From: an uncultured virus (IMG/VR IMGVR_UViG_3300020048_000025)
Lineage: Duplodnaviria; Heunggongvirae; Uroviricota; Caudoviricetes
Length of the DNA: 64,000 nt
Strand: one strand, 5' to 3'
IMG/VR virus record: IMGVR_UViG_3300020048_000025
The translations under genes were made by a program, and so were the position numbers. Positions 40,414 to 62,856 of this stretch are shown piece by piece (the stretch's first letter is position 1; every line of letters starts with the position of its first letter). Below the pieces are notes generated by a model, which saw only the letters and a list, made by a program, of their open reading frames with translations, was not told the DNA's origin and ran no database searches.

Positions 40414-40422
40414 TACAATAAC

Positions 40423-41052: not shown

Positions 41053-41089
41053 TTTGGAGCCCCGCAATTTTTTCCATACATTTATGCCC

Positions 41090-42061: not shown

Positions 42062-42143
42062 AGTTGTTGTATACGTATAAACATAACCACACAGAGATAG
42101 TGGAACGTTTTGTTTATGTAGAATGCATTAACATTAATATTAA

Positions 42144-42866: not shown

Positions 42867-42968
42867 TGAATGCCTTTAAAGTTAGTTACACAAATTGGCT
42901 CCCGCAAGGAGCCACTTTTGTCTTTTTCCACCATATGTATTATAGTAATAACTTTAAACATTTAACTT

Positions 42969-43769
42969 ATGAACATTTACGGACGAGTTGGTTGGAGAAC
43001 CGCTGCTGTAGCACCCTCAGTAGACGACGCCCAAGCATTCATATTGGCTGCTGGAATAACCGATCCAACTCAACAATCAGCAATTACCACACTGGTATCT
43101 CAATTGAAAACCTACGGTATCTGGGGTAAAATGAAAGCAATTTACCCATTCGTGGGAGGTAGCGCATCATCTCATAAATTCAACCTAAAAGATCCACGCG
43201 ACTTAGATGCAGCGTTTAGATTAACTTTCTTTGGGGGTTGGACACACAGCTCAACTGGTGCTAAACCAAATGGAACAACTGGATATGCAAATACATTATT
43301 CCAACCATCAATATCATCTACTTTAAATTCACATGGTATAGGTTATTATGCTACTGAAAACACGACTAATCTAGGCGACCCTATTCAAATGGGTGCTAAT
43401 AATTCGGGCACACAATCATTAATTTTAGCTTCTAAAAACACAACTATGTTTGGTGCTGCTGACGGAACAAACATCAGTGGTGCTATCAGTGGTGGTGCTG
43501 GGTTATTTTCAGTACATAGAACCTCATCTACAGTTACAACAATATATAAAAATGCGGCATTAATAAATTCGGGCAATAGTGGGGGGTCATTACCTATTGC
43601 TATGATTTACATAGGTAATATTTCAGTAAATTACATTCCTTACAGCTCTGGTTATGTCAATAGTGAATTTAGATTATCATATATTTCCGATGGTTTAACA
43701 GACGCAGAAGCAGCTAACTTCTACACAGCAGTTCAAGCATACCAAACCACTCTTGGCAGAGCAGTATAA
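42969..43769 (+). CDS. Cassette copy 3 (duplicate of 38506)
   Basis: Identical translation. Confidence 0.6.
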   Translation: MNIYGRVGWRTAAVAPSVDDAQAFILAAGITDPTQQSAITTLVSQLKTYGIWGKMKAIYPFVGGSASSHKFNLKDPRDLDAAFRLTFFGGWTHSSTGAKPNGTTGYANTLFQPSISSTLNSHGIGYYATENTTNLGDPIQMGANNSGTQSLILASKNTTMFGAADGTNISGAISGGAGLFSVHRTSSTVTTIYKNAALINSGNSGGSLPIAMIYIGNISVNYIPYSSGYVNSEFRLSYISDGLTDAEAANFYTAVQAYQTTLGRAV

Positions 43770-43789
43770 CCCACTAAACATACTACAAA

Positions 43790-44005
43790 ATGAAAGTAAG
43801 ACAATTAACCGAAGAACAAAAAGACCAATTAGTTGGACAAACATACGATGGCGTACAATTCTTTAACCCTACTTTGGATGCAGATGGTAACTGGTTTATT
43901 TCGAATGAAGAGGTAAACAACTGCACACACGCAGGTGTAAACGAATGGATACACGAATTACCAGAAATTGACTACAATCCAGTGGTAAGTGAATTGCCAT
44001 TCTAA
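43790..44005 (+). CDS. 71-aa partner (duplicate of 39327)
   Basis: Identical translation. Confidence 0.6.
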   Translation: MKVRQLTEEQKDQLVGQTYDGVQFFNPTLDADGNWFISNEEVNNCTHAGVNEWIHELPEIDYNPVVSELPF

Positions 44006-44085
44006 TTCATTTTCAATTCCCCATCAAATAGCCACCCCTCAAAAGGTGGCTTTCTCTCTGTATATTTATTTACAAACAACCAACC

Positions 44086-44295
44086 ATGAAAAAACTACTA
44101 AAAAATTACTGGGCACCAACACCAAAAAAATGGCGTAAACTTGGTGACGCATTGTTAACCGTAAGCACAACAATCACTGGTTTTTCAATTGCCATGGACC
44201 ACAAAACACTTGCATATACAGCACTTATATGCGGTATATTAGGTAAAGTAATCACTAATTTATTCACTGAAACTCAACAAACTGAAAACATATGA
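44086..44295 (+). CDS. Putative holin (duplicate)
   Basis: Identical to 39623. Confidence 0.55.
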   Translation: MKKLLKNYWAPTPKKWRKLGDALLTVSTTITGFSIAMDHKTLAYTALICGILGKVITNLFTETQQTENI

Positions 44296-44876
44296 GCAAC
44301 GTACGTAACTACACAGACAAAGAAATACTAGACCGCATCAAGTCACTTTCATCCTTCAAAACCATACCAACCAAAAAATTCATTGTTGGCTTCCGCTCAA
44401 ACGAGGATGCACCAAACAAATTCGACGACAAATTCTATATGTTCGAAGGTGAAAAATTCATCGATGTAGTAACAGGCACAACCAACCCAGGTACACCTGT
44501 GTTACAGGGTGGATACTTGAAATACAACAAAGTGGGAGCCGCTGTAGTGAAAGCAGACATGTGGTACTACGATGTATGGGCGTATGGTTTGCATATGGGC
44601 AAGATGCCAGCACTTAGACAAGTTGCACCAATCACTGTATATCGCGATGGCGACAAAGATGGCAAATCGGAGGAAATCGGTGCACCAATCACAGGACTGT
44701 ACGGTATTAACTTCCATGCAGCAACATACAACAATGCATTCACTGGATTGCAAGAAAACATTGGCGAATGGTCAGCAGGATGCCAGGTGGTAAACGATAA
44801 GCAGAAACACTTGAAGTGGATCGAAATGTTGAAAACACAATCCCGTGTAAGTTATGTATTGTTGAACGAATTTTAA
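44292..44876 (+). CDS. L,D-transpeptidase-like enzyme (duplicate)
   Basis: Identical to 39829. Confidence 0.55.
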   Translation: MSNVRNYTDKEILDRIKSLSSFKTIPTKKFIVGFRSNEDAPNKFDDKFYMFEGEKFIDVVTGTTNPGTPVLQGGYLKYNKVGAAVVKADMWYYDVWAYGLHMGKMPALRQVAPITVYRDGDKDGKSEEIGAPITGLYGINFHAATYNNAFTGLQENIGEWSAGCQVVNDKQKHLKWIEMLKTQSRVSYVLLNEF

Positions 44877-44885
44877 TACAATAAC

Positions 44886-45515
44886 ATGAGCCTTAAAGCA
44901 CTACAAGAGAAAATAGGGGTGTTGGCCGATGGTAATTTCGGACCGAAAACACTTAAAGCAGCCGCTGCATACTTCAAATTCACACCCGAACGTGCTGCAC
45001 ATTTCTTCGGGCAAGTTGCAACCGAAACAGGTAACTTTGCAGCATTTAGCGAGAACTTAAACTACTCAGCAGATGGACTGCAACGCATATTTGGCAAATA
45101 TTTTCCAGGCGATCTAGAAAAACAATACGCTAGACAACCAGAGAAAATAGCCAATCGTGTATACGGTAGCAGAATGGGCAACGGTCCGGAGGCAAGCGGA
45201 GACGGGTGGAAATACCGTGGAAGAGGTGCTGTGCAATTGACAGGTAAATCAAACTACCAAACATTCGCAACGTACTTGAAAAACGCGGAAATCATGAACA
45301 ACCCAAATTTGGTTGCCACTACATATGCATTTGAATCAGCTATATTTTTCTTTGAGCGAAACAAATTGTGGCAATACACAGTGAAAGTAGACCATCCATC
45401 TATACTCAAACTATCCCGTTCCATTAACCTAGGCAACGCTAACTCAACAGCGACACCCCATGGGCTAGATAGCCGCATCAAATTCACAGAACAATTTTAT
45501 TCTTGGTTGAAATAA
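44886..45515 (+). CDS. GH19 endolysin (duplicate)
   Basis: Identical to 40423. Confidence 0.8.
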   Translation: MSLKALQEKIGVLADGNFGPKTLKAAAAYFKFTPERAAHFFGQVATETGNFAAFSENLNYSADGLQRIFGKYFPGDLEKQYARQPEKIANRVYGSRMGNGPEASGDGWKYRGRGAVQLTGKSNYQTFATYLKNAEIMNNPNLVATTYAFESAIFFFERNKLWQYTVKVDHPSILKLSRSINLGNANSTATPHGLDSRIKFTEQFYSWLK

Positions 45516-45552
45516 TTTGGAGCCCCGCAATTTTTTCCATACATTTATGCCC

Positions 45553-46524
45553 ATGAAAAAAACATATTTACCTTACCTTTTGCTATTTTGCGCACTTGGA
45601 TTGTCCGCAACAGCAGCATACTACAGTGTAGTTGGACTCGCAGTGATATTCTCCAGCGTAGCCATACCAGTTGTAATCATGGGCACATTTTTGGAAATAT
45701 CCAAAATATCTATTGCCACTTACCTACATAATTCATGGAGTAAAATATACACCGCAATGAAAGTATATCTGGTTATTGCTGTGGTAGTGCTATCATTCAT
45801 TACCTCACTGGGTATATATGGTTTATTGAGTGGTGGTTTCCACCAAAACATATCCAAACTAGAGGTGGGCGAGCGTGTAATTCAAAGCGTGAACGTAAAA
45901 AAGCAACGCTATGAGCAAATCAAGCAGGAATATATCGTGGAAAAACACACGCTAGACAAAGACATATCCGCGCTTAGAGGCGCATTGTCAACCAACTCCA
46001 CATTGTCCCATGTAGACAAAAAGACCGGCGCTGTTATTAACACGGAAAGCGCAGGTAACCGTAAAGCATACGAGGCACAATTGCGTGAAACATCCCAAAC
46101 ACGAAACGAGCTCACACACAAGATAGATGTACTGAACGATTCAATCACCGCACTTGACATGCACGTGCTAGATTTGGAAAACACTGAAAATTCATCCAGT
46201 GAATTAGGCGTAATCAAATACATACATGAGCTAACTGGATGGAGCATGAAAGGAATCGCAAACGTATTCATATTGCTACTCATATTTGTGTTCGATCCTT
46301 TAGCCATCATGCTTGTGGTAGCCACAAACCAAGCATTTGAATCAGCCAAACCAAAATTCAACATATATGGTGAAATAAAACAAGACGATCCAGTGCAACC
46401 CGCACCAATATACAGCGCGGAGGACGTTATTTATCCCATAGTGGAGGAAAAACCGGCACGTGATGTCACTAGCGAATTGAGAAAACAATTGTTCGGCAAT
46501 GACGACACTTCCAAGACCTACTAG
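45553..46524 (+). CDS. Membrane coiled-coil protein (duplicate)
   Basis: Identical to 41090. Confidence 0.6.
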   Translation: MKKTYLPYLLLFCALGLSATAAYYSVVGLAVIFSSVAIPVVIMGTFLEISKISIATYLHNSWSKIYTAMKVYLVIAVVVLSFITSLGIYGLLSGGFHQNISKLEVGERVIQSVNVKKQRYEQIKQEYIVEKHTLDKDISALRGALSTNSTLSHVDKKTGAVINTESAGNRKAYEAQLRETSQTRNELTHKIDVLNDSITALDMHVLDLENTENSSSELGVIKYIHELTGWSMKGIANVFILLLIFVFDPLAIMLVVATNQAFESAKPKFNIYGEIKQDDPVQPAPIYSAEDVIYPIVEEKPARDVTSELRKQLFGNDDTSKTY

Positions 46525-46606
46525 AGTTGTTGTATACGTATAAACATAACCACACAGAGATAGTGGAACGTTTTGTTTATGTAGAATGCATTAACATTAA
46601 TATTAA

Positions 46607-47319
46607 ATGGAAGCAATATTCAACGCACTTGTAAACAAATTTAGCAATTTATCACCACTACTGACATTCATCTTCATCATTCTAGCAACAACCATGTACT
46701 TATTCAAGGATGCAATATCCAAGAAAATACAAGAGTACCGTATGCGCAGAAACAGTGACTCAACATCAGAAGATGGGCAATACGATTTCGACGATTTAGC
46801 ATACCATGACCTGTTTAGCGTCATATTTGAAGTTAGATCCGCAATTAAACACCACCATTTCCACGAGGAAGACGGTGGTGAAACCAAAACACGCATATTC
46901 CACGATTTCCTTAACATCATGTTAAACGAAATATTCGAAAACATGAAACAACTTATCGCAAACATAGCCGCACAACACAAAGCAGGGGATGTATCGCGTG
47001 ATGAGTTGAAGCAAATGATACGCAAATCACTAAACGTGATTGTAGATAGTTATTGTGTGAAAGGTGAGCACCATTTAATCGACAAGGGCCTCACCAAAAA
47101 GGACGCAACATATGTTGTTGATCTATTCGAGAAATGGAGAAGCGAAACACGCGCATCAATCAATTCCCGTATTGACGCAATATTTGCCAGCTCATTCCAC
47201 ACCACAAATTTTCAGCGCACATTAGCGGTATATGAGCTAATCAGCGTGTCGGTATCATTGATACCGAAAGACGGAATCCGTTCATTTGAATCCATGAACG
47301 GCAAATTCAAAACCATCCA
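46607..47319 (+). CDS. Membrane-anchored protein (duplicate of 42144), cut by the assembly gap
   Basis: Identical up to the gap; its 3' end (...KTIQYE*) reappears at 47420-47484. Confidence 0.6.
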
Positions 47320-48866: not shown

Positions 48867-49583
48867 ATGCTTAGACTTACACTTATATCCGACACTCACG
48901 CAAAACACAACCAGTTAAACGGTGATTTACCTGGAGGAGATATACTTTTGTGTGCTGGCGATTTCATGACCGATGGCTATAGCCAAACCGAAGCATGTCA
49001 ATTCTTCGAATGGTTCAACAACATCAACACATACGATGCAAAAATATTCATCGCAGGTAACCATGATCGCATCATGCAAAACGAACCGGAAATTATGCGT
49101 GGTATATTAACCGAATACAAAACCATCGACTATCTTGAAGACGAGGAGTGCGTGCTGTATTTTGATGGAGTAAACGGAGATGAACCAGAGCAAAACATTC
49201 GCATTTATGGCTCGCCATGGCAGCCTGAGTTTTATTCGTGGGCTTTCAACCTGCCACGCAATGGAGAGGAACTGGCGGCAAAATGGGCAGCCATACCAGC
49301 CAACACAGATATACTCATCACGCACGGACCCGCTTGGGGATACAACGATACAACCCAGTATCGTCGCGATACACATTTGGGTTGTGAGTTGCTACGCGAG
49401 CGAATTGATGTAATTCGACCGAAAATACATTTGGCGGGTCACATCCATAGTGGACATAATTACTACTACGATGGACATACACACCACTTTAACGCATCCG
49501 TTTTAAACGAGCGATACAATTACGCAAATTTACCATTCACATTCAACTGGAACCCAATCACAAACGAAATCATTTGGATATGA
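48867..49583 (+). CDS. Calcineurin-like metallophosphoesterase
   Basis: SDTH, AGD, AGNHD, THGP and GHIH motifs. Confidence 0.92.
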   Translation: MLRLTLISDTHAKHNQLNGDLPGGDILLCAGDFMTDGYSQTEACQFFEWFNNINTYDAKIFIAGNHDRIMQNEPEIMRGILTEYKTIDYLEDEECVLYFDGVNGDEPEQNIRIYGSPWQPEFYSWAFNLPRNGEELAAKWAAIPANTDILITHGPAWGYNDTTQYRRDTHLGCELLRERIDVIRPKIHLAGHIHSGHNYYYDGHTHHFNASVLNERYNYANLPFTFNWNPITNEIIWI

Positions 49584-49831
49584 CGCTAGACGAATTCAAC
49601 GAAAAATGGAAGAAACACATATACAAGCGGTATCCTGGCTTGCAAATAGATGATGTGCGTGTAATTGAATACTGCGATACAAAATTTGAGCAAATTTTAC
49701 ACATATACCCAAATTTCCACTGTACCTCCATACACAACCGTTATGGTATAACGCGTTGTAACATAGTGAATGTGATTGAGGAAGTGGGGGAGGAAATAGT
49801 GCGCGAAATAGATGAAATACTTAACTCATGA
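49574..49831 (+). CDS. Hypothetical protein
   Basis: 85-aa ORF overlapping both neighbours. Confidence 0.5.
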   Translation: MDMTLDEFNEKWKKHIYKRYPGLQIDDVRVIEYCDTKFEQILHIYPNFHCTSIHNRYGITRCNIVNVIEEVGEEIVREIDEILNS

Positions 49832-50763
49832 AACACTACATACTTTACTTATTTTTGCTCCTCCCAACCATATGTTGGAGTCAAACCACCATTATAACCC
49901 AGCAATTCTCCACTGTAGCGCCCGCGGGATGGTCATCAACCACCTCCTCGTGGAATTTTGTATACAATGCATCCACAACTGGCAATTCATTATCCGGTGC
50001 ATACTCAGCAAGATTGTCATCAGCTTCCACGGGCAATGGCAAGTACATTTATATTCCAGTTACAGTGGCAACTGGAAACACATACAAAGTCAAATTCTAC
50101 ACAAAGCGGGCATGTGGTGTTACCGTTAACCTAAACGAGACAGCAAACCAAACCACACTCATATCCACCTCTAGTGCAACCAATACCGGATGTTCATCCA
50201 ATTTCAGCACATGGTATATGTGGGAAGTGAATTTATTTTCAACGTACGATGGAGTCGCATATATTCAAATACTAGTGGGTACTGTATATGGTGGACCTAC
50301 ATCAGTGTATTTAGATGATGTAACCATCACCTATACAACACCCGTATCGCTCCCAATCGAGTTACTGTATTTCAAAGCATATGGTAACCCACAATTCAAC
50401 CGACTTAAATGGTGTTGCGCTACTGAAACCATGAACTGGTATTTCACTGTGTACCGCAGTGAAGATGGAATGGTGTGGTTACCTATAGCAAAACAACCGG
50501 GTGCTGGAACTACACCCCACCAAACATGCTATCAAGCCACCGATACCAATGTTTCGGAAAACGTTGTATACTACAAGTTAACCCAAACAGATTTCGATGG
50601 CAGCGAACACGAATGTGAAATAGTTTCACTATTTAATCCCGTTCCCATCAAGCAAATATCCCATATATTGGATATTGAAGGGAGATACGTTGGCGAAGGT
50701 TATGTGGGGTGGGTTATTGTCATTTATTCTGATTCATCAGCTCATTTAATGTACCAAGAGTGA
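49828..50763 (+). CDS. Secreted protein resembling Bacteroidota T9SS cargo
   Basis: Signal peptide MKHYILYLFLLLPTICWS; CBM-like beta domain; LPIELLYF..LKW..ATE..N.YF.V.RS.DG..W domain; YYKLTQTDFDG. Confidence 0.7.
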   Translation: MKHYILYLFLLLPTICWSQTTIITQQFSTVAPAGWSSTTSSWNFVYNASTTGNSLSGAYSARLSSASTGNGKYIYIPVTVATGNTYKVKFYTKRACGVTVNLNETANQTTLISTSSATNTGCSSNFSTWYMWEVNLFSTYDGVAYIQILVGTVYGGPTSVYLDDVTITYTTPVSLPIELLYFKAYGNPQFNRLKWCCATETMNWYFTVYRSEDGMVWLPIAKQPGAGTTPHQTCYQATDTNVSENVVYYKLTQTDFDGSEHECEIVSLFNPVPIKQISHILDIEGRYVGEGYVGWVIVIYSDSSAHLMYQE

Positions 50764-50823
50764 AATATTTTTGTGTGGTATGCGACTTTGGTGGAATCCA
50801 GTAATATGTATGGGCATATATAA

Positions 50824-50896
50824 GGGGGTTTAGCTCAGTTGGTAGAGCGTCTGCCTTGCACGCAGAAGGTCAACAGTTCAACTCTGTTAATCTCCA
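50824..50896 (+). tRNA. tRNA-Ala (UGC), CCA not encoded
   Basis: Acceptor GGGGGTT/AATCTCC with G3:U70; D arm GCTCAGTTGGTAGAGC; anticodon arm TCTGC-CTTGCAC-GCAGA; TTCAA T-loop. Confidence 0.93.
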
Positions 50897-50906
50897 CTTC
50901 ACTCTA

Positions 50907-50951
50907 GAAAGGTTCATTCTGATTTAATCCAGTTTGAACCTTTCCTTTTTT
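50907..50951 (+). terminator. Terminator after tRNA-Ala
   Basis: GAAAGGTTCA...TGAACCTTTC plus a T run. Confidence 0.7.
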
Positions 50952-50993
50952 CACCATATTTATACTTGTAATAACTTTAAACAATTTAAAAAA

Positions 50994-51734
50994 ATGGGAA
51001 TACTCATAAACGGACAAGTAGGTTGGAGAACTGCTGCAGTAGTTGGACCACAACCTTCAACACCACTAACCACTGGCTTATATTCAGTATATAATGCTGA
51101 AAACAATGCAAATGACTCATTTGGGTCAAACAATGGAACAGCTGTTGGTGGATTAACTTACTCTACTGGTAAAATTGGACAAGCATTCCAATTTAATGGT
51201 AGTAATGCATATGTTAGTTTACCAAATAATTCATTGAATTTTACTGGTGATTTTAGTGTGTCTATGTGGATTAACCCAACAAGTGTATCAGGATTCTCGG
51301 GGTTATTTGGAAATCAAATAGGTGTTACTTATGCAAATTTTTACGGATATTTATGTTTTATAAATGCAGGATATATTTATTTTGATATTTATAATGGTGC
51401 GAGTGGTAGTGCAACAGGTAGATGGAAAACTACAAGTGCTATCTCAACAAGTGTTTGGACACACGTAACAATTGTTAAAAAACCAAATCAAGCGGTAAAA
51501 TATTATATAAATGGAACATTAGATGCAGCAGTATTAACATATGGCTCTGATAATGGTAATCTTGTTTATCACACAACAAATTTAGGTACACTCGGGGCGA
51601 ATAGATATTCTTTGGGTACTGATGCTTATTACAACGGAAAAATTGACGCAGTTAACACTTGGACAAAAGAACTAACTCAATCAGAAATAACCGAACTATA
51701 CAACTCAGGAACTGGCAAACAATACCCATTTTAA
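50994..51734 (+). CDS. LamG/concanavalin-A-like protein, cassette copy 4
   Basis: GKIGQAFQFNG, FSVSMWINP, WTHVTIV, YINGTL, YNGKIDAV, LTQSEITELYN; shares leader DNA and GQVGWR N-terminus with copies 1-3. Confidence 0.8.
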   Translation: MGILINGQVGWRTAAVVGPQPSTPLTTGLYSVYNAENNANDSFGSNNGTAVGGLTYSTGKIGQAFQFNGSNAYVSLPNNSLNFTGDFSVSMWINPTSVSGFSGLFGNQIGVTYANFYGYLCFINAGYIYFDIYNGASGSATGRWKTTSAISTSVWTHVTIVKKPNQAVKYYINGTLDAAVLTYGSDNGNLVYHTTNLGTLGANRYSLGTDAYYNGKIDAVNTWTKELTQSEITELYNSGTGKQYPF

Positions 51735-51755
51735 TTAACCACTAAACTTTAAACA

Positions 51756-51971
51756 ATGAACGTATATAAACTAACAACCGAACAAAAAGACCAGCTAGTT
51801 GGTCAAACTTGGAACGGAACAGCATTCTTTAACCCTACATTAGATGCAGATGGAAACTGGTTCATCTCAGCAGAAGAAGTAAACGGATGTACTCACCAAG
51901 GTGCAGCAGAATGGATCCATGATTTACCACAAATCCCCCACAACCCAGTAGTGAGCGAATTGCCATTCTAA
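51756..51971 (+). CDS. 71-aa cassette partner, copy 4
   Basis: Paralogue of 6056 and 39327. Confidence 0.75.
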   Translation: MNVYKLTTEQKDQLVGQTWNGTAFFNPTLDADGNWFISAEEVNGCTHQGAAEWIHDLPQIPHNPVVSELPF

Positions 51972-52051
51972 TTCAACCCACATTTCAAAAAAACATTTGG
52001 CTCCGCAAGGAGCCATTTGTATGTTTACACATAATTTAAAACAAAACATTT

Positions 52052-52198
52052 ATGTCAAAATCAACAACAAGACAACGAGTAGAAACATTGCAAGGATGGT
52101 TAGCATTCATCACCCGCAACACACCTAAAAAAACAACCCGCGTATCACACGAGAGCAAACCATCGCTAGATCAAATCATGCGCGAGCACAACAAATAA
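52052..52198 (+). CDS. 48-aa hypothetical protein (not in the ORF track)
   Basis: MSKSTTRQRVETLQGWL...REHNK between the promoter at 51997 and the AlaRS gene. Confidence 0.5.
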   Translation: MSKSTTRQRVETLQGWLAFITRNTPKKTTRVSHESKPSLDQIMREHNK

Positions 52199-52204
52199 AC
52201 GGCA

Positions 52205-53047
52205 ATGAAAGACATCCGCACACTGTACCAACAATACTGCGAATCCCATTCCATTCCATTCAGACACGACAACAAAGTAAACCCATACGATGATACTACA
52301 TTGTTTTGCCCAGCGGGAATGCAACAATTCAAACCGAAATTCAAAAACCCAGACAACACAACCACAGCAAACATACAATCATGTATACGTTTACAGGACA
52401 TTGCGGAAATCGGAGACGGTACACACTTGTTGCATTTCAACATGCTTGGATTGTTTTCATTTGGGGAAATGAACATGCAACAAGCGGTTGACTTTTGGAT
52501 GGACTTTATCACCCGTGTACTCGAAATCAAAGTAGACACAATCACCATCCACCCCCACAAACTAAACGAGTGGAAACACATGTACTCTGCATACCCACAC
52601 CTCAACATCACCACAGATACAGAATGTATCTGGTCAGATGGTGAGATGGGAGGCTACTGTACCGAATTCTACATAAACGGAGTGGAAATAGGCAACATAG
52701 TTAACACGTTAGATCAATTCATAGATGTTGGATTCGGCATGGAGCGACTTGAGCTCATGGTAAATGGCGAACAAGTAAAGTCAGCGCTGGATACGCTACG
52801 AGAAACAATCGAGCGCATCATCGACTCGGGCTACAAACCTGGCCCACAAAAACAAGGGTATATTTTGCGTAAATTGCTACGTGAACTGTATGTACAGGGC
52901 GGAGAAATGGAGCATCCATTTTTCACCCAAGAGGTGGAACGTCAAGCGAAAGCAAAAGCGCGCTATGAGCGATTGGTAGTTAAACACCCAGATATGCCAG
53001 TGGAATGGTGGTTCGATACACATGGAGTAGATTTAGATCTCTTGTAA
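52205..53047 (+). CDS. alaS: Minimal alanyl-tRNA synthetase (aminoacylation core and tRNA-recognition remnants; no editing or C-Ala domain)
   Basis: DTTLFCPAGMQQFK, QSCIR, FNMLGLFSFG, CTEFY, EIGNIV, IDVGFGMERL, GYILRKLLR and FDTHG follow the AlaRS motif order. Confidence 0.88.
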   Translation: MKDIRTLYQQYCESHSIPFRHDNKVNPYDDTTLFCPAGMQQFKPKFKNPDNTTTANIQSCIRLQDIAEIGDGTHLLHFNMLGLFSFGEMNMQQAVDFWMDFITRVLEIKVDTITIHPHKLNEWKHMYSAYPHLNITTDTECIWSDGEMGGYCTEFYINGVEIGNIVNTLDQFIDVGFGMERLELMVNGEQVKSALDTLRETIERIIDSGYKPGPQKQGYILRKLLRELYVQGGEMEHPFFTQEVERQAKAKARYERLVVKHPDMPVEWWFDTHGVDLDLL

Positions 53048-53099
53048 AAAAACGTGCCTTCCACATATGTATGTCGTATATTGGTTGAAAACACATTTA

Positions 53100-53176
53100 A
53101 AACATTAGCCCGAAGTACAAGGGAACGAAGACAGCGCAAGGCGGTCACTTAGGTGAGCAAAATGATGTTAATGTTT
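53100..53176 (+). ncRNA. Candidate structured small RNA
   Basis: AAACATTAGC/GTTAATGTTT closing stem around three small hairpins; own upstream promoter motif; no ORF. Confidence 0.35.
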
Positions 53177-53259
53177 GCATCACCGCACACTCGGCTCCAA
53201 AACGTAGGTTGGTACAGTTTGTATGTTCTGGGGGTATTTTTCAAAAAAAACATACACAT

Positions 53260-53334
53260 GCTCCGTTAGTGAAGCGGTTAACACGCTGCCCTTTCACGGC
53301 AGAGGCACGAATTCGAATTTCGTACGGAGTACCA
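53260..53334 (+). tRNA. tRNA-Glu (UUC), CCA encoded
   Basis: Acceptor GCTCCGT/ACGGAGT-A-CCA; anticodon arm CTGCC-CTTTCAC-GGCAG; TTCGAAT T-loop. Confidence 0.93.
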
Positions 53335-53460
53335 TCCCCCCTGTCGATAGTATCGGCAGGTCAAGATCCTGTGGTCACACCATTAGAACTGCTCACTGGA
53401 CTTTCTGGTGCAAGGGAAAGCAATGCGTCGCTCGAGCAACCATTGTATAACCTGCACCTC

Positions 53461-53504
53461 CCCCAACCATGCCTACAGACGTGTGGGTTTTGGTTGGGGT
53501 TTTT
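53461..53504 (+). terminator. Terminator closing the tRNA-Glu transcript
   Basis: CCCCAACCA...TGGTTGGGG plus a T run. Confidence 0.7.
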
Positions 53505-53519
53505 AATTTAATTCAATTT

Positions 53520-53618
53520 ATGATATTGTTAATTTATTTTGGGTTTGTTGGTTTAGTGTTAGTGTTAGCCGCGCTAGTGAAAGAACTCATCGAACGAATT
53601 AAAAAACGCTTGTTTTAG
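53520..53618 (+). CDS. 32-aa membrane peptide
   Basis: MILLIYFGFVGLVLVLAALVKELIERIKKRLF. Confidence 0.35.
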   Translation: MILLIYFGFVGLVLVLAALVKELIERIKKRLF

Positions 53619-53664
53619 CAAATCTCCATTCGTATATTGTGGTTATAATTAAAAAATTAAAGTT

Positions 53665-53943
53665 ATGAAACGAAACACATTCACCTATTTCTTGCTATTT
53701 TTGCGCAGAAATGGTTTTCTTTGCCGCACCCCACGCCGCAAACCATCCAAACTACTCATTTCCCACACTGTATACCCAGATGTGCAATTGTCCCCAATTG
53801 ACACTGAAGTACACGTGTACCTTCAAAACAAAAAGTCATCCGTGAAAAACTGCGTATTCAACGTAGCGATACGCTCTTGTGTGTGCGGTATATCATTGGA
53901 CAAATTTGGAGAAAAAGGTTGCCCGAACAAGTCAAACAAGTAG
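53665..53943 (+). CDS. Hypothetical protein
   Basis: 92-aa ORF after the promoter at 53610. Confidence 0.45.
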   Translation: MKRNTFTYFLLFLRRNGFLCRTPRRKPSKLLISHTVYPDVQLSPIDTEVHVYLQNKKSSVKNCVFNVAIRSCVCGISLDKFGEKGCPNKSNK

Positions 53944-54042
53944 AATATTTATACGTAAACATCTAGCTATATGGAGGTAACACACATGGTATTAGCCGAA
54001 TATTTGTTAGATTATATAGTTAGACACCCAAACTAAACATGT

Positions 54043-54423
54043 ATGAAGGACAAAATACTACTCATTGACATTGACGGAACTATATGCTGCGATATCCGCA
54101 ACGAAGACTCGCATTTATTCCCAGACGCTAAACCATTCGAAGGTGCAACAGAGCACATTAACCGATGGTTCGAAAACGGTAACACAATCATATTTTTCAC
54201 TGCACGTGAAGAAAAAGACCGCACCGTTACCACCCAGTGGCTACACGACAATGGATTCAAGTTCCATAATTTAATCATGGACAAACCACGATGCAAAGAC
54301 GGGCAAGAATACGTGTGGATAGACAACAGACCTGTCCGCGCAGTAACATACAAGGGCATGTGGGGTGAATTTGTACCACAAACGCACATGATCATGACCT
54401 TTGGAAACATATCAAGTAACTAA
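54043..54423 (+). CDS. HAD-superfamily phosphatase
   Basis: LIDIDGT, FFTAR, MDKPR and WIDNR motifs. Confidence 0.85.
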   Translation: MKDKILLIDIDGTICCDIRNEDSHLFPDAKPFEGATEHINRWFENGNTIIFFTAREEKDRTVTTQWLHDNGFKFHNLIMDKPRCKDGQEYVWIDNRPVRAVTYKGMWGEFVPQTHMIMTFGNISSN

Positions 54424-54437
54424 TAAACCAATATAAT

Positions 54438-54773
54438 ATGAAATCAGTTTTGAACAAGGAAAACGTTGTATCAACGTTGAACAAGGTAAAGCAATATGCC
54501 ATTATTGCCGTTGCACTTACAATTGGATTTTTCGTGGGCAATTACACTCACAAAATCGAGTTATCCACCAAGATGTCAAAAAATACATACCGCGATAATC
54601 CATATCGCAACATGCGTTCTACAAAGGATATTTCCATTGCAGTAGATGAACACAACGAATTGTTGCTCATCAATAAGCAAACTGGAAAATACCAGGTGTA
54701 TTCAGACTCAATTGGCATGTGTATATTCAGAATGTACTCGTACCGAATTTACCAAAAAGCAACACAACAATGA
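54438..54773 (+). CDS. Membrane-anchored hypothetical protein
   Basis: One transmembrane segment near the N-terminus. Confidence 0.6.
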   Translation: MKSVLNKENVVSTLNKVKQYAIIAVALTIGFFVGNYTHKIELSTKMSKNTYRDNPYRNMRSTKDISIAVDEHNELLLINKQTGKYQVYSDSIGMCIFRMYSYRIYQKATQQ

Positions 54774-55670: not shown

Positions 55671-55814
55671 ATGAAAAAATCAATTATCATCAACGAAGAA
55701 GTACATTTTCAATTGAAACAATATTGTGATGAGAATGGCTTAAAATTGCAAAAATTGGTCGAACAAATTATTATTAAATATGTTGGAAATGGAAGCAAAA
55801 AAAGAAAAATATAG
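55671..55814 (+). CDS. 47-aa ribbon-helix-helix-like DNA-binding protein (not in the ORF track)
   Basis: MKKSIIINEEVHFQLKQYCDENGLKLQKLVEQII: beta strand then helix-G-helix pattern; late motif at 55657. Confidence 0.6.
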   Translation: MKKSIIINEEVHFQLKQYCDENGLKLQKLVEQIIIKYVGNGSKKRKI

Positions 55815-56442
55815 CACGGTATACATATATTACCTTCATTTAGGAGATAATATTCCATTTTATGTAGGAAAATCGGTTTCCCCAACTTCTAGAAGAAATG
55901 ACCATGTTCATAGAAAATTAATCCCTAATCACGATTGTTTTTGCATTATAGATCAGTTTCCTGAACATGAGTGGAAATACTGGGAACGGTTTTATATAGG
56001 ATTATTTAAATCATGGGGGTTTGCACTAACCAATAAAAATGATGGTGGTGGGGGGTTAACTAAACATAATCATGATTCTATAAGTAAAATCTCACAATCA
56101 ATGACTGGAAAAGTTATGTCAGATGATACTAAAAATAAAATGAGTAATAGTGCTAAAGGAAGAAAAAACACTCCTGAACAAAAACAAAAACTTTCATCTA
56201 GTTTACAAAAATACTACTCCCAAAACCCTGGTTCATTTTCCGGGAAGACTCATTCACCTGAAACCTTGGAAAAAATATGCAAACCTGTTGTAGCCTTAAA
56301 AAATGGAGTTATTGTTGAAGAATATGCATCATTAAAAGAGGCAGGAAAAGCACATAAATCCCATAGCGGAAATATAATTAAATATATGAGAGAAGGAAAG
56401 CTATATCACGGAATGGAATGGAAATACAAACATCAATTATAA
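55780..56442 (+). mobile_element. Free-standing GIY-YIG homing endonuclease with NUMOD3-type repeats
   Basis: VYIY...FYVGKS, WERFYI, LTN...GG, and GK.(M/H)S.(D/E)T..K repeats; start may be ATG 55789. Confidence 0.85.
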
Positions 56443-57576: not shown

Positions 57577-58383
57577 ATGAAACAAGAAAAAAAACATGCA
57601 GTAGTTAGCCTTAGTGGTGGTTTAGATTCAAGCACATTATTACTTCGTTGTTTAAAAGAATACACTACAGTAACCGCTATTTCATTTGACTATGGTCAAA
57701 AACATAGAGTAGAATTGGAACGCGCTCAAGCGTTAGTAAACTACTTGAACTCAAAAGAAGACATATGCATTAATTATCGCGTAATTAAATTAGATGGTTT
57801 AGTTGATTTACTCAACTCTACATTAGTAGCTGGTGGAGACGATGTGCCAGAAGGTCATTATGCTGAGGAAAACATGCGCGCTACGGTAGTTCCAAACCGC
57901 AACAAGATATTCTCTTCTATCACTCAAGCAATTGCTTTATCCGTAGCAGATAGAACTGGTGAAAAATGTGATATTGCGTTAGGGTTACATAGCGGCGACC
58001 ACGCAGTTTATTTAGACACTACTGAAGAATTTAGACAAGCCGATACACATGCATTTAAAATAGGGAATTGGGGCTCAGAAAACGTTGGTTTCTTCACCCC
58101 ATATATGGAGGGAGACAAATTCACCATCCTACAAGATGGTGAAACACTATGTAGCGATTTAGGTTTGGAATTCAATGAGGTGTACAAACGTACAAACACA
58201 TCATACAAACCATACCCATCTGGTAATTCAGACTACAAATCAGCATCTAGTGTTGAGCGCATTGAAGCATTCATCAAATTAGGCAAACCAGATCCAGTGC
58301 AATACGAAGACGAAACAGGTGAGGTAAGTTGGGAGGTAGCCCGAACACATGCAGAACATATTTTATCCACTCACAATTCATAA
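57577..58383 (+). CDS. queC: 7-cyano-7-deazaguanine synthase
   Basis: SGGLDSST PP-loop, FDYGQKH..EL, TVVPNRN and H.GDHAVY. Confidence 0.92.
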   Translation: MKQEKKHAVVSLSGGLDSSTLLLRCLKEYTTVTAISFDYGQKHRVELERAQALVNYLNSKEDICINYRVIKLDGLVDLLNSTLVAGGDDVPEGHYAEENMRATVVPNRNKIFSSITQAIALSVADRTGEKCDIALGLHSGDHAVYLDTTEEFRQADTHAFKIGNWGSENVGFFTPYMEGDKFTILQDGETLCSDLGLEFNEVYKRTNTSYKPYPSGNSDYKSASSVERIEAFIKLGKPDPVQYEDETGEVSWEVARTHAEHILSTHNS

Positions 58384-58385
58384 AC

Positions 58386-58934
58386 ATGATTAAACTCACC
58401 GATCTTCTCAAATCCATACTACCACCACATCGCAATCCAAACCATTTCATAATCGAAAGCAAACAAGTAGTACGCGAAATCACACTTCAACCAGAAAATT
58501 CATACGAAGTAACATACGAGAAAGACGGTGGGTATTTTTCAACAGGTGATGTTGAATACACATTCAACATAAACGAGCTCCCCAACCAATTTGTATTCCC
58601 TGGCGATCCATCCCAAACCGAATTTGTTGGTGGGATGTTAGATATAGGTTTTACCCCAACCGGAGATAATTTAACCGAACCAAAAGGTGGGAGGGAGAAT
58701 TTAATCAAAATATACTCAACCATATTCAAAGTAATATTGGATGTAGCATCAAAATATAAACCAACATACCTGTCCATTTCATGCACTGATTCAAGTGGAT
58801 ATTTCCCCATATATTCCCAGCTAACCAAAACAAACAAAATACCTGGGTACCATAGGAAAATAGTTATATCGTGGAAACACTACCAATTAAGCAACATGCA
58901 CACCATAGTTTTAACCAAAAATAATTTAAAATGA
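58386..58934 (+). CDS. Hypothetical protein
   Basis: Likely start ATG 58386 (MIKLTDLLK). Confidence 0.55.
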   Translation: MIKLTDLLKSILPPHRNPNHFIIESKQVVREITLQPENSYEVTYEKDGGYFSTGDVEYTFNINELPNQFVFPGDPSQTEFVGGMLDIGFTPTGDNLTEPKGGRENLIKIYSTIFKVILDVASKYKPTYLSISCTDSSGYFPIYSQLTKTNKIPGYHRKIVISWKHYQLSNMHTIVLTKNNLK

Positions 58935-59086
58935 ACCAACCAGACCCAAAAATGCACCAAATCGTTAGCTTCGTGAAATCCGGAGCACGTATAGTCGGAT
59001 ACGCGTTGATCTTAGTAGACATCAACATGGCCGTATCTACATTAGTATTATCCGAATTAATCGGCATTGTAGAAGAACTTGTATAG
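58931..59086 (+). CDS. 51-aa membrane protein (not in the ORF track)
   Basis: MNQPDPKMHQIVSFVKSGARIVGY...ELIGIVEELV. Confidence 0.55.
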   Translation: MNQPDPKMHQIVSFVKSGARIVGYALILVDINMAVSTLVLSELIGIVEELV

Positions 59087-59133
59087 TTCAAACATTATTC
59101 GTAAATTTGTAACAAAATTAAAAAACAAACAAT

Positions 59134-59603
59134 ATGACACAGTTTAAATCCTCAAAATTATACGATGGGTACTCTGCATGCTTTAGACAATGGCGTGCAA
59201 CGGGTACCCATTGTTAGGTAGGTTCGTTCACGGATACGCGATTTCGTTTCGCGTATGGTTCGAAGGCGAGCTAGATCACCGCAATTGGGTAATGGATTTT
59301 GGAGCAGCAAAACGCGCTAAACATACCATTGAGGGTATGAACCCAAAAGACTATTTCACCTACCTACTAGACCACACAACCATTATCGCTGAAGACGATC
59401 CGTACTTGGACAAATTTAAGCAAATGGATGCTGATGGTATTCTCCAGCTACGAATCCTCCCTAGTGTTGGGTGTGAACGTTTCGCTGAACACTTATACAA
59501 TGTAATCAACACTTGGTCCCTAGCTGAAACCGAAGGACGTGTTCGCGTAGTTAAAGTAGAAGTGTATGAACATGAGCGTAATTCATCATCATATGAAGGA
59601 TAG
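59134..59603 (+). pseudogene. queD: 6-carboxytetrahydropterin synthase, interrupted by a frameshift and TAG
   Basis: ATG 59134 reads MTQFKSSKLYDGYSACFRQWRATGTHC then TAG (59215-59217); RFVHGY...DF...LDH...CERFAE...EVYE continues in another frame. Confidence 0.8.
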
Positions 59604-59657
59604 TTACTGGACAACATCCACCACTTTTGGTGATGTAATAATCAATTATGTAATTAA

Positions 59658-59900
59658 ATGAAACAACTAATTTACTTTTACGGTACATTTTGCAACCCTT
59701 GCAAATCATTCCGCCCCACCATCGACGCCCTAAGCAGAGAATACCCAGTGCGATATGTTGATGTCGATCAAGAACCACAACTTGTGGCAGAACACGGAAT
59801 CCGCTCAGTGCCTACTGTGGTGGTAGTGCAAAATGGCCGCCCAGTTGGAAAACAATCGGGCGTACTGACGGAAGGTCAGTTGCGTGGTATGTTAAATTAA
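59658..59900 (+). CDS. Thioredoxin-like protein
   Basis: FCNPCK, VDVD and IRSVPT. Confidence 0.88.
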   Translation: MKQLIYFYGTFCNPCKSFRPTIDALSREYPVRYVDVDQEPQLVAEHGIRSVPTVVVVQNGRPVGKQSGVLTEGQLRGMLN

Positions 59901-59905
59901 AATAG

Positions 59906-59928
59906 GGCCCCAAATAGGGGCCATTTTT
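59906..59928 (+). terminator. Rho-independent terminator
   Basis: GGCCCC-AAATA-GGGGCC-ATTTTT. Confidence 0.65.
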
Positions 59929-59985
59929 ATCCACAACCATTATACCTTTCACAAATTTATCAATATGTATAACTAAAATTAAAAC

Positions 59986-61431
59986 ATGGGAAACTTAATT
60001 TTGCGATCCACTAAAGGATCTGCACTCACACATACCGAATTAGACAATAATTTCGGTTATTTTACAGGCTCGCACGCCATTACTGGATCAATTACAGCAT
60101 CCGATGGTTTTGCAGGGAATGTAGTTGGTACAGCTTCGTACGCTACGCTAGCATTAACTGCATCTTATGCAGTAAGCGCGTCATACGAAATTAACTACGA
60201 GGTTAGTTCATCGTACGCTGAAACAGCATCAATTGCAACCAGCGCATCATATGCTGCAACTGCATCTTTTGTTAAAAATGCACAAACAGCTAGTTACGTT
60301 GCAAATGCTCAAACAGCATCGTATGTAACATTAGCACAAACTGCTAGTTATGTTACGTTAGCACAAACAGCATCATACGTTGCAAACGCTCAAACTGCTA
60401 GTTATGTTGCAAACGCTGTATCGGCATCATATGCTACAACTGCATCTTATATAGCAACTGCTCAAACAGCTAGCTACGTTGCAAATGCTGTATCCGCTTC
60501 ATACGCTGCAACAGCGTCATATGTAAGAAATGCTGTATCTGCATCATACACAACAAACTCAGTATCTGCATCTTATGTTGCAACTGCTGCTACTGCTAGT
60601 TACGTGAAAAACGCTGTATCCGCTTCGTATTTCAACACTGGATTTAATGCAGTTGCTGCTGGTCCATTCTCTCACGCAGAAGGTTATACTACAGCAGCAA
60701 ATGGGTTTTATTCACATGCTGAAGGTGGTTCTACAGTAGCAAATGGTGAAGGTTCCCATACAGAGGGTGCTAATGCAACAGCTAATGGTGGATATTCACA
60801 CGCAGAAGGTAATGGCACAACAGCAACCGGAAACTATTCACACGCTGAAGGTAACGCTACAACATCAACTGGAGAAGCGTCACACGCTGAAGGTTCATCC
60901 ACTAATGCTATTGGAAACTATTCACACGCTGAAGGTCAAACTTCAATATCTAATGGATTGTATTCACATGCTGAAGGTGGGAATACAAAGTCATGGGGTA
61001 ATTATTCACACGCTGAAGGTTCAACTACATACGCTAGTGGAGAAGCGTCCCACGCTGAAGGAAATTTAACCACTGCATCTGGGCAATACGCACACGCAGA
61101 AGGTGTGTCCACAATTGCGATAGGTTCAGGATCTCACGCTAGTGGTTACTCTACTATGTCCAGTGGTTCATACCAAAACGTTACCGGTAGATTCAACACT
61201 CACGGCGACACAACATCCAGATTTATTGTTGGTAATGGAACAAGTGATGGAGCGCGTAAAGATGCATTCAAAGTTACACATAGTAGTTCAATTGTTGTTC
61301 CACCACTAGATGCTGCACCAGCATGGGCCGGTGTAGAAGGTGAAATGATCCCTGCAGTTGTAGGTGGTACTTCATACCTATACGTTTACATAAACGGTGG
61401 TTGGAAAAAAACCGCATTATCTGCAACATAA
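59986..61431 (+). CDS. Orphan short tail fibre/adhesin (TASYV and SHAEG repeats)
   Basis: KGSALTHTELDNNF N-terminus; both repeat types; C-terminus homologous to the 11319 ORF; late motif at 59963. Confidence 0.75.
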   Translation: MGNLILRSTKGSALTHTELDNNFGYFTGSHAITGSITASDGFAGNVVGTASYATLALTASYAVSASYEINYEVSSSYAETASIATSASYAATASFVKNAQTASYVANAQTASYVTLAQTASYVTLAQTASYVANAQTASYVANAVSASYATTASYIATAQTASYVANAVSASYAATASYVRNAVSASYTTNSVSASYVATAATASYVKNAVSASYFNTGFNAVAAGPFSHAEGYTTAANGFYSHAEGGSTVANGEGSHTEGANATANGGYSHAEGNGTTATGNYSHAEGNATTSTGEASHAEGSSTNAIGNYSHAEGQTSISNGLYSHAEGGNTKSWGNYSHAEGSTTYASGEASHAEGNLTTASGQYAHAEGVSTIAIGSGSHASGYSTMSSGSYQNVTGRFNTHGDTTSRFIVGNGTSDGARKDAFKVTHSSSIVVPPLDAAPAWAGVEGEMIPAVVGGTSYLYVYINGGWKKTALSAT

Positions 61432-61499
61432 TCCAATTTACATACAAAAATATTTGGCTCCGCAAGGAGCCATTTGTATCTTTAAATAAAAACAGTTAT

Positions 61500-62285
61500 A
61501 TGAACGAAAAGAAACTAGGTCGCATTAGCGACTACAACAAAACACTACCCGTGCTGGAACTCTATACTTGCCTCCAGTCAGAAGGTTCTCGTTTTGGTCG
61601 CCCAAACGTATTAATCCGCACCACAGGTTGCACTCATCGCTGTTATTTTGGTGAAGGTGGATGGTGTGATTCATGGCAAACATCAATCCATCCAGAAAAA
61701 GGTAAGTTCACATTCAATGACATCATCAAAATGTACGACGATAACCCTCAAATACACGAAATGATGATCACTGGAGGTTCACCTACCATGCATGGTGATT
61801 TAGTAAACGAGTTAATGCATTTCGCTCACGAGCGGGGTATATTCGTTACCATTGAAACAGAAGGATCCCATTTCCTTCCCACGGATCACCCAATCGATTT
61901 AATTTCATTGTCACCTAAATTTGCAAACAGTATACCACAATTGGGTGTGTTAACCCCACAAGGTAAACCAACCAACCAGAAAATGATCGACCAACACAAC
62001 AAATTCCGGTTGAATTATGAACCAATTCGAAATACATTGGCATACCATAAAGACTATCACTTCAAACCAGTGTGGGACGGTACTGAGGGAAACCTAGAGC
62101 AAATTGAGGCCGCCCGAGTATTCCTAGACATACCAAAAAACAAAACATTCATCATGCCTGCAGGAGACAATCGAGACGAATTAATTCGTATGTATCCACT
62201 TGTATTTGAAATGTGTACCCGTGAGGGATACAACATGACTGGCCGAGACCACATCATTGCATATAACAAAGAGCGCTACGTTTAA
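61500..62285 (+). CDS. queE: 7-carboxy-7-deazaguanine synthase (radical SAM)
   Basis: LQSEG...G.P..LIRT.GC, CTHRCYFGEGGWCDS, ITGGSP, IETEG and SLSPK; start ATG 61500. Confidence 0.9.
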   Translation: MNEKKLGRISDYNKTLPVLELYTCLQSEGSRFGRPNVLIRTTGCTHRCYFGEGGWCDSWQTSIHPEKGKFTFNDIIKMYDDNPQIHEMMITGGSPTMHGDLVNELMHFAHERGIFVTIETEGSHFLPTDHPIDLISLSPKFANSIPQLGVLTPQGKPTNQKMIDQHNKFRLNYEPIRNTLAYHKDYHFKPVWDGTEGNLEQIEAARVFLDIPKNKTFIMPAGDNRDELIRMYPLVFEMCTREGYNMTGRDHIIAYNKERYV

Positions 62286-62306
62286 CCAATCAAATACAAC
62301 CCAGTT

Positions 62307-62807
62307 ATGAACGAATTAATAAGCAAAGCATCCCTCAACCACCACGTTAGAAAAATAGGCGCACTAATAACCAAAAAACACCAACCAGACATGAACAATG
62401 TAGTGATGGTATGTTTGTTAAACGGTGCGTTTGTATTTTTCGCCGATTTAGTTAGACAAACTCACTTGAATATCCAGTGCGATTTCATGCGCGTTAAATC
62501 ATACGATGGGCAGGAACAATCCGAGATACAAATACTCAAAGACATCGAAATGGATTTGGCTGGAAAACACGTGTATATCGTTGATGACTTTTACGATACG
62601 GGCAATACTATGAACGCTGTTTACTCGCATTTAAAATCGCGTAATCCTGCGTCGTTAACGGCGGTTACTTTACTTAAACGCTACCGTTGTAAACGACCTA
62701 CATACCCATTTATATATGGTATTGAAATTAAAAAAGACTGGGTGTTTGGATATGGTTTAGACAATATTGGATATTGTCGAAATTTATCGTCAATTTTCAA
62801 AGTTTAA
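62307..62807 (+). CDS. hpt: Hypoxanthine/guanine phosphoribosyltransferase
   Basis: LLNGAFVFFADL, VKSY, IVDDFYDTGNT PRPP loop and VFGYGLD. Confidence 0.88.
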   Translation: MNELISKASLNHHVRKIGALITKKHQPDMNNVVMVCLLNGAFVFFADLVRQTHLNIQCDFMRVKSYDGQEQSEIQILKDIEMDLAGKHVYIVDDFYDTGNTMNAVYSHLKSRNPASLTAVTLLKRYRCKRPTYPFIYGIEIKKDWVFGYGLDNIGYCRNLSSIFKV

Positions 62808-62856
62808 TTTGGATACCACAATTTAATTTAGTATATTTACATAAAAATAGAAACAT

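Follow-up and report, generated by a model that had tools for sequence, protein, structure and literature searches.

What does a phage gene encode when it carries the motifs of alanyl-tRNA synthetase (AlaRS) in a protein of only 280 residues: a complete enzyme, a remnant of one, or a different activity built on the same fold? The gene in question lies in a 64,000-nucleotide stretch of DNA from an uncultured virus (IMG/VR record IMGVR_UViG_3300020048_000025), hereafter the window, which is a fragment of a freshwater myovirus. A reading made from the letters of the DNA (the sequence-only reading) had proposed a streamlined, editing-free AlaRS of about one third the normal size, encoded beside a tRNA-Ala of its own. 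Our analysis points to a real, widespread and very reduced form of AlaRS, which has names in databases and for which we found no published study; literature searches returned no work on an AlaRS family of ~280 residues, and a term search in a jumbo-phage review (PMC7824862) returned none either. We think that the protein is probably an autonomous, editing-free AlaRS that makes alanyl-adenylate (Ala-AMP) and needs only acceptor-stem contacts to charge tRNA-Ala.

All AlaRS motifs quoted by the sequence-only reading are present, in order, in the translation of the open reading frame (ORF): TLFCPAGMQQFK, QSCIR, FNMLGLFSFG, CTEFY, EIGNIV, IDVGFGMERL, PGPQKQGY, GYILRKLLR and WFDTHG, with the C-terminus 6 residues beyond the last of these. 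The hidden Markov model for tRNA-synt_2c (Pfam PF01411) scored 78.2 bits against a gathering score of 30.3 (E 6.7e-22), its best stretch covering profile positions 2-133 of 552 only, and a profile of the family found solved AlaRS fragments at E 3e-41; the match to AlaRS is therefore far above chance. Furthermore, neither an editing (tRNA_SAD) nor a C-Ala domain gave a Pfam match in the protein, which ends at residue 280, so that the proposed one-third size and lack of editing held up.

AlphaFold2, supplied with a 38-sequence alignment reaching down to 27% identity, returned a confident model (predicted local distance difference test (pLDDT) 94.6; predicted template modelling score (pTM) 0.87). 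AlaRS catalytic fragments took the top Foldseek ranks (9jc7, E 6.7e-17, query-based template modelling score (TMq) 0.79), and alignment with VIA-align to residues 1-441 of E. coli AlaRS (3hxu) gave Z 25.5 over 279 aligned residues. By the same method, residues 1-280 of the model map to residues 1-412 of the E. coli enzyme, 1-400 of the Aquifex enzyme and 59-458 of the A. fulgidus enzyme (3wqy). Because 280 residues span E. coli 1-412, ~130 residues of loops have been deleted, and as modelled the protein would correspond to the complete aminoacylation domain as far as the Asp400 loop, minus these residues. Among the E. coli insertions that are absent are those around 186-206, 219-231 and 257-283, plus much of 329-398, in keeping with the compressed helices described earlier from the sequence. 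The alpha subunit of bacterial glycyl-tRNA synthetase (GlyRS alpha, GlyQ) was also considered as an identity and rejected, since its fold matched with Z 16.8 over residues 1-199 only, compared to Z 25.5 over 1-280 for AlaRS.

A profile alignment in which residues were counted gave the E. coli equivalents R62=R69, W143=W170, E161=E209, N164=N212, V166=V214, D174=D235, G176=G237 and, for the motif-3 arginine, R181=R242, and it placed PGPQKQGY (P212-Y219) on PSNENRGY (P300-Y307). Columns invariant across the 38 members were F34, G38, Q58, R62, D65, F78, M80, G82, F84, H116, W143, E154, E161, V166, D174, G176, G178, R181 and G274, and N164 was conserved in at least 90% of them. This invariant set consists of the alanine/ATP site and one glycine of the C-terminal loop. 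Such conservation bears on two further explanations. The protein could be a non-catalytic or regulatory binder of tRNA-Ala, serving as a decoy or a shield, or sensing alanine or uncharged tRNA, which would agree with the retention of acceptor-stem elements and with the tRNA genes often found near its gene; the family-wide invariance of R62, E161, D174, G176 and R181 would, however, be unexpected for a mere binder, and we regard this role as very unlikely. It could also be a transferase of the type of AcmF, the ascamycin biosynthesis protein, which uses as donor an Ala-tRNA made by another enzyme and is likewise a truncated AlaRS-like protein with aminoacylation and tRNA-recognition domains. 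AcmF is the one truncated AlaRS-like enzyme that has been characterised as not activating alanine. As part of the text of PMC12945691 describes it, AcmF has lost most of its ATP- and alanine-binding residues and carries N219Q and D232E, whereas N164, D174 and the remaining site are kept in the phage protein, leaving this idea with a minimal probability.

Is the short protein a decayed piece of alaS? A word-seeded search among proteins of 154-490 aa found at least 947 homologues at E <= 1e-3, the best 120 of which are 259-319 aa long and 53-96% identical. A scan of 1.84 billion cluster representatives returned 2012 matches, 45 of them at E <= 1e-30; its full-length members have ~275-330 aa and end at query position 276-280, while true AlaRS of 550-900 aa appeared only at ~1e-15 to 1e-19. 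In a set of 150 family proteins (250-420 aa), 139 could be matched, and their tail beyond DTHG(I/V) has a median of 6 residues. The ratio of non-synonymous to synonymous substitution rates (dN/dS) lay between 0.045 and 0.147 in all 6 pairs formed by the window and three close relatives. By length, motifs, DTHG end and a separate clade, the protein belongs to a family of 280-aa proteins annotated as "alanine--tRNA ligase-related protein". The number of homologues, the fixed end point, the low dN/dS, the confident fold and the monophyletic clade lead us to reject a decayed alaS fragment with near certainty; together with catalytic residues that stay invariant down to 27% identity, they support the earlier view of a streamlined rather than a decayed enzyme.

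We next consider the part of the protein that would meet the tRNA. In E. coli, two residues read G3:U70, the Asn N303 and the Asp D400 (here and below, statements on published enzymes follow parts of the text of PMC10036535 and PMC6055181). The positive determinant, which recruits G3:U70, is Asp400; D400A and D400N lower kcat/Km ~25-fold. Y399, D400 and G403 are strictly conserved, and N303A is fully active, yet starts to charge a G3:C70 tRNA (PMC6055181). The recognition remnant of the phage protein contains PGPQKQGYILRKLLR, aligned to E. coli P300-R314, and its F270-D271-T272-H273-G274 aligns by sequence to the Y-D-T-Y-G loop of the Aquifex enzyme that contacts G3:U70. The structural fit of this loop has end points that agree within 2-3 residues, the end of the model falling on E. 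coli 411-412, while the profile put the same C-terminal stretch on the ERFAETLG helix in 9jc7. Because that profile alignment differs, the assignment of the Asp rests on the Aquifex alignment and the structural end points. At the Asn position the protein has Pro214, equivalent to E. coli N303, the Asn of PSN being the sole Asn of the motif common to E. coli, Aquifex and 9jc7. Thus the kept Asp motif and altered Asn position of the sequence-only reading were both recovered. Across the 150 family proteins the Asp position is D in 117, G in 9, E in 8, N in 2 and another residue in 3 (11 unmatched), and the Asn position is P in 67, N in 50, S in 7, A in 5 and G in 1 (20 unmatched). These alignments suggest that the positive determinant is kept and that the negative one is dispensable in about half of the family. 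Q217, Y219, R222 and R226 were moreover invariant in 25 members. Retention of these four residues and of the Asp loop argues for tRNA charging, since an enzyme making Ala-AMP solely for an acceptor other than tRNA would gain nothing by keeping them.

This last point also bears on the main rival explanation, an alanine-adenylating ligase whose alanine would go to something other than tRNA. Candidate acceptors include small molecules, nucleotides, carrier proteins and precursors of lipids or of the cell wall. Truncated synthetase paralogues with other roles include AsnA, PoxA/EpmA and the amino-acid:carrier-protein ligases. An intact Ala/ATP site without an editing domain is what such a ligase would have, the protein is close in size to GlyRS alpha, which cannot bind tRNA alone and whose fold it shares over residues 1-199, and a separate role is likely in those bacterial carriers in which a full alaS coexists. 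The ligase would, however, leave unexplained why few parts of the family are as well conserved as the GYVLRKLLR helix and the D-T-x-G loop. Nor did we find a conserved partner or acceptor gene: all-against-all ORF clustering of 156 loci yielded no conserved neighbour, viral neighbours being replication genes and the like (RecA/UvsX, 5'-3' exonuclease, DnaB, gp32, ThyX, ribonucleotide reductase (RNR), ClpP) and bacterial ones varying. Fusion to another domain was not found either; among proteins of 491-2000 aa the sole match was an 879-aa AlaRS at 1e-11. On balance we hold the ligase to be rather unlikely, and an AlaRS that charges tRNA-Ala to be the better account.

Known short AlaRS forms help to place such an enzyme. 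The closest characterised relative in function is TuAlaRS of Tupanvirus (461 aa; Antika et al. 2023, PMC10036535), which is also viral, lacks editing and C-Ala domains, carries Pro in place of the Asn and works through the acceptor stem alone, as is predicted for the phage protein; the Tupanvirus genome also has G3:U70 tRNA-Ala genes. Although its Asp is likewise replaced, by Thr, TuAlaRS is still G3:U70-specific. In contrast to it, the phage protein, a predicted enzyme, is 181 residues shorter after removal of the ~130 loop and helix residues, belongs to the bacterial type, has retained the Asp and forms a clade of its own. Nor is it a mini-AlaRS of the TuAlaRS type, with intact catalytic and recognition domains in ~460 aa, as both of its domains have lost residues. 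In architecture, the nearest counterparts are engineered fragments of the E. coli and Aquifex enzymes (3hxu, 1riq; N441-N461) and the alpha subunit of the split AlaRS of N. equitans. The fragments share the full-length fold (Z 24.3-25.5), the alanine/ATP residues and the Y-D-T-x-G loop, but were engineered from 875-aa enzymes and are 160-180 residues longer. The N. equitans subunit has only part of the recognition domain (PMC10036535) and acts together with a beta subunit that contributes the remainder; neighbour clustering and the search of long proteins found no beta-like partner here. The small-AlaRS of ~590 aa (bioRxiv 10.1101/2023.05.29.542759; NF002436) is another naturally shortened bacterial-type AlaRS, but consists of catalytic, ATL and editing parts and so keeps editing and the full recognition domain; against NF002436 the phage protein scores 57 bits with a cut-off of 529.

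We also asked how closely the gene is tied to tRNA-Ala. The sequence-only reading had reported a G3:U70 tRNA-Ala(UGC) 1.3 kb upstream, and ARAGORN, Rfam and a reading of the stem confirmed it: the acceptor stem runs G1:C72 G2:C71 G3:U70 G4:C69 G5:U68 U6:A67 U7:A66 with discriminator A73, and the tRNA ends 1308 nt before the start of the AlaRS-like ORF. That reading further suggested a phage-private alanine-charging pair, and here the comparison of loci did not support it. Within 8 kb of the gene, a tRNA was present at 25 of 76 viral loci and a tRNA-Ala at 14 of 76, compared to 11 of 80 and 0 of 80 bacterial loci, respectively. The 211 nearby tRNAs include 28 for Ala, second to Glu (32), and the nearest tRNA is for Ala at 4 of the 25 loci. 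In phages the gene is often placed within or next to tRNA arrays, which favors a role in tRNA charging. When whole viral records (n=27) were searched with RF00005, 18 had tRNAs and 8 had tRNA-Ala(UGC), which was the only tRNA on one 84-kb contig and one of two on three contigs. All five gene-bearing records rated 88-100% complete were without tRNA-Ala, one of them having 22 tRNAs. As a matched control we used 80 phage loci related through DnaB (67-97% identity), from which 20 with contigs of at least 32 kb were taken. An AlaRS-like gene was present on one of the 20, a known carrier, and three genomes that are 96-100% complete were without it; of the gene-less control contigs of at least 46 kb, 5 of 14 had tRNAs and 2 of these 5 had tRNA-Ala(UGC), one being 96% complete. 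Among tRNA-bearing records, tRNA-Ala was thus about equally frequent with the gene (8/18) and in gene-less controls (2/5). tRNA-Ala is common in related phages regardless of the gene, the pairing of gene and tRNA is not obligatory, and the gene counts as an accessory of the sub-lineage to which the window belongs.

Two sets of tRNA calls at other viral loci are recorded here. On the 7,038-bp viral contig L114 (1699-5340), a six-tRNA array (Glu, Tyr, Glu, Ile, Gly, Ala) lies 5' of the gene on the + strand and the same array is mirrored 3' of the gene on the - strand, which may be a fold-back assembly artefact. At viral loci L136, L138 and L152, ARAGORN called an 88-nt "tRNA-Ala(AGC)" with U3:A70, not G3:U70, ~0.7-1.4 kb upstream, a doubtful call.

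The coding sequences of the window have 39.6% G+C, Ala makes up 9.0% of codons (47% GCA and 37% GCT), and Glu codons are 74% GAA, so that both tRNAs of the window match favoured codons. It is plausible that the gene meets the alanine demand of the phage; the codon match fits a supply role, as a correlation only.

The family itself is spread over phages and bacteria. The 76 viral loci lie on contigs of 4-608 kb, and the 80 loci in species-representative genomes belong chiefly to Rhizobium, Neorhizobium, Inquilinus, Phyllobacterium and Caulobacteraceae. A match was also present in 113 plasmid records, 93 of them Rhizobium, under the PGAP name "alanine--tRNA ligase-related protein", and in 4 of 50,697 phage records of a cultured-phage survey, the best (53% identity) being from an uncultured 635-kb phage. 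We built a tree from 49 of the 156 loci, 31 viral and 18 bacterial ones selected for breadth, to which the window and the N-termini of ten true AlaRS were added; its row L149 was mistranslated and is unreliable. The branch parting the family from AlaRS had a Shimodaira-Hasegawa-like approximate likelihood ratio (SH-aLRT) support of 100, the deepest family branches were viral, and 16 of the 18 bacterial rows grouped with five viral rows in a single clade (SH-aLRT 95). Such a topology, which depends on the long outgroup branch, fits a phage-borne family captured by Alphaproteobacteria.

The Rhizobium proteins, found on plasmids and chromids, have the same length and motifs as the phage protein and are 53-56% identical to it; the homologue on R. 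etli CFN42 p42b, RHE_RS22135, is itself 280 aa long. They differ in being stand-alone bacterial copies beside metabolic genes in cells with a full alaS, and they nest inside the phage diversity. Literature searches found no published function for them. The homologue lies downstream of genes for a dihydrodipicolinate synthase (DHDPS)-family protein, a sialidase, an iron-containing alcohol dehydrogenase (Fe-ADH) and PdxA. On R. brockwellii plasmid pRltCC275eD (locus L208, 5119-6876), Phd/VapC and Xre/RES toxin-antitoxin modules are located directly 5' of the homologue; at the equivalent place on R. etli p42b they are absent. Because VapBC and RES-Xre modules intervene in R. brockwellii, the homologue is not tied to the upstream metabolic genes. 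A further bacterial carrier, the Armatimonadota metagenome-assembled genome (MAG) G052 (3.8-Mb assembly; locus L062), differs from the other four examined in that the alaS model matched the small gene alone, at 38 bits. Either this MAG is incomplete or the small enzyme is its sole AlaRS, and the latter would strongly support the proposed function.

Several observations weigh against an autonomous AlaRS that charges tRNA-Ala. The ~130 residues missing from E. coli 1-412 include the motif-2 loop G71-H74, in which K73 is the residue that forms a cross-link with the 3' end of the tRNA. Against TIGR00344, the NCBIfam equivalog for alaS, the protein gave 79.2 bits with a cut-off of 457, so the full-length architecture is not present. 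The Asp is replaced in 22 of the 139 matched family proteins, and the change from Asn to Pro may mean relaxed specificity in the phage protein. Full alaS (944-969 bits), together with AlaX-like pieces, is present in 4 of 5 bacterial carriers examined; the small protein is unneeded for ordinary translation in such bacteria and may have another role there. The absence of tRNA-Ala enrichment described above counts on the same side, as does the N. equitans alpha subunit, which alone charges weakly and without G3:U70 specificity (PMC10036535).

Weighing these points against the fold, residue conservation, fixed length, purifying selection and distribution observed here, we still favor an autonomous, editing-free AlaRS, and would picture its adenylate formation, tRNA charging, dependence on G3:U70 and physiological role as follows. 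The class II core would bind alanine and ATP with the residues used by cellular AlaRS and form alanyl-adenylate, while the four-helix remnant would dock on the acceptor stem, its Asp271/Gly274 loop reading the minor groove at G3:U70. Alanine would then be transferred to A76. The C-Ala elbow clamp and the editing domain would play no part, and the Asn that repels G3:C70 tRNAs is gone too. Host tRNA-Ala would be charged besides phage tRNA-Ala, providing extra alanylation capacity for an Ala-rich, GCA/GCU-biased phage proteome, and mischarged Ser or Gly would presumably be left to host trans-editing factors. A bolder version, which we consider quite improbable, would make the protein the smallest natural aminoacyl-tRNA synthetase, fully autonomous and working on the acceptor helix alone, that, having lost editing and in this lineage the Asn as well, alanylates RNAs which the host enzyme rejects or has no access to and so opens an insulated or relaxed-specificity channel. 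Its substrates would be phage tRNA, damaged or competitor tRNAs or tRNA-like helices, with a benefit both to phages and to the Rhizobium chromids that captured the gene. What weight is left beyond the readings named here belongs to functions we have not thought of.

The gene and its flanking tRNA form a small translation islet, the features of which are collected in the table.

Table. Features of the AlaRS-like gene and its immediate surroundings (positions in the window; the Rfam gathering score for both tRNAs is 29)
Feature	Position	Strand	Evidence
Gene for the 280-aa minimal AlaRS-like protein, stop codon included	52205..53047	+	ORF with ATG start; PF01411; AlphaFold2 model
Residues 1-190, putative class II catalytic core with shortened loops	52205..52774	+	Profile alignment to 3hxu; invariant columns; model
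Residues 194-280, putative four-helix tRNA-recognition remnant	52784..53044	+	Sequence and structure alignment
tRNA-Ala(UGC), G3:U70, A73	50824..50897	+	ARAGORN; Rfam 70.3 bits; stem read from sequence
tRNA-Glu(UUC), 213 nt 3' of the AlaRS-like gene (context only)	53260..53334	+	ARAGORN; Rfam 65.2 bits
48-aa basic ORF, ends 6 nt 5' of the AlaRS-like gene	52052..52198	+	Kept in closest relatives only
Terminator-like hairpin with T-rich tail, 5' of the 48-aa ORF	51998..52015	+	Consensus scan only

ARAGORN found these two tRNAs, both on the + strand, in the whole window, and an Rfam scan of 49500-54500 returned the two alone, with neither a leader nor a riboswitch seen. The tRNA-Glu occupies the same position in the relatives L081 and L082. 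The 48-aa ORF is identical in L081, 94% identical in L082 and 57% in L083, absent elsewhere, and without a Pfam match; a complex prediction of its product with the AlaRS-like protein scored 0.00, which weighs neither way. The hairpin may separate the unit of this ORF and the AlaRS-like gene from the preceding genes. No editing or aminoacyl-transferase genes were found among 30 further window ORFs (Pfam) or 47 (PHROGs), and Pfam showed no C-Ala domain in those 30 either.

All large ORFs of the window are on the + strand, and PHROGs identified a tail tube protein, a single-stranded DNA-binding protein (SSB), a UvsX-like recombinase, an exonuclease, a DnaB helicase and both RNR subunits. The closest relative of the window is a 63,957-bp IMG/VR contig, rated 37% complete, with an AlaRS-like protein that is 96% identical; genomes of related phages measure 155-174 kb. 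Elsewhere in the window, 38450-42850 and 42913-47313 form an exact tandem duplication of ~4.4 kb (offset 4463 nt, 100% per 100-nt block) with four ORFs, one of them similar to glycoside hydrolase family 19 (GH19)/endolysin proteins, which may be a recent real event or an assembly artefact. Two full-length tail-sheath paralogues, both matching phrog_23, are adjacent at 13709-15418 (569 aa) and 15467-17212 (581 aa), and a homing endonuclease gene lies at 55780-56442. Region 57577-63567 holds a 7-deazaguanine set of QueC-, QueD- and QueE-like genes and a GTP cyclohydrolase, with a phosphoribosyltransferase at 62307-62807, a gene set that suggests modified DNA in the window phage.

AlaRS has been described as keeping its four-domain prototype throughout biology, and the only natural synthetase said to consist of the aminoacylation domain alone is the 461-aa enzyme of Tupanvirus (parts of PMC10036535). 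If active, the 280-aa protein would be the smallest natural tRNA-charging enzyme and would lower the known minimum size of a working synthetase. From it one could learn which parts of the aminoacylation domain an enzyme can do without. The "operational RNA code" of the acceptor stem could be tested in a natural system, and engineering would gain a compact scaffold. If it charges no tRNA, it would instead be a new alanine ligase that descends from a synthetase. In both cases the family raises the questions of why phages would carry an alanine-charging enzyme of their own and why it is kept beside a normal alaS in Rhizobium-group bacteria.

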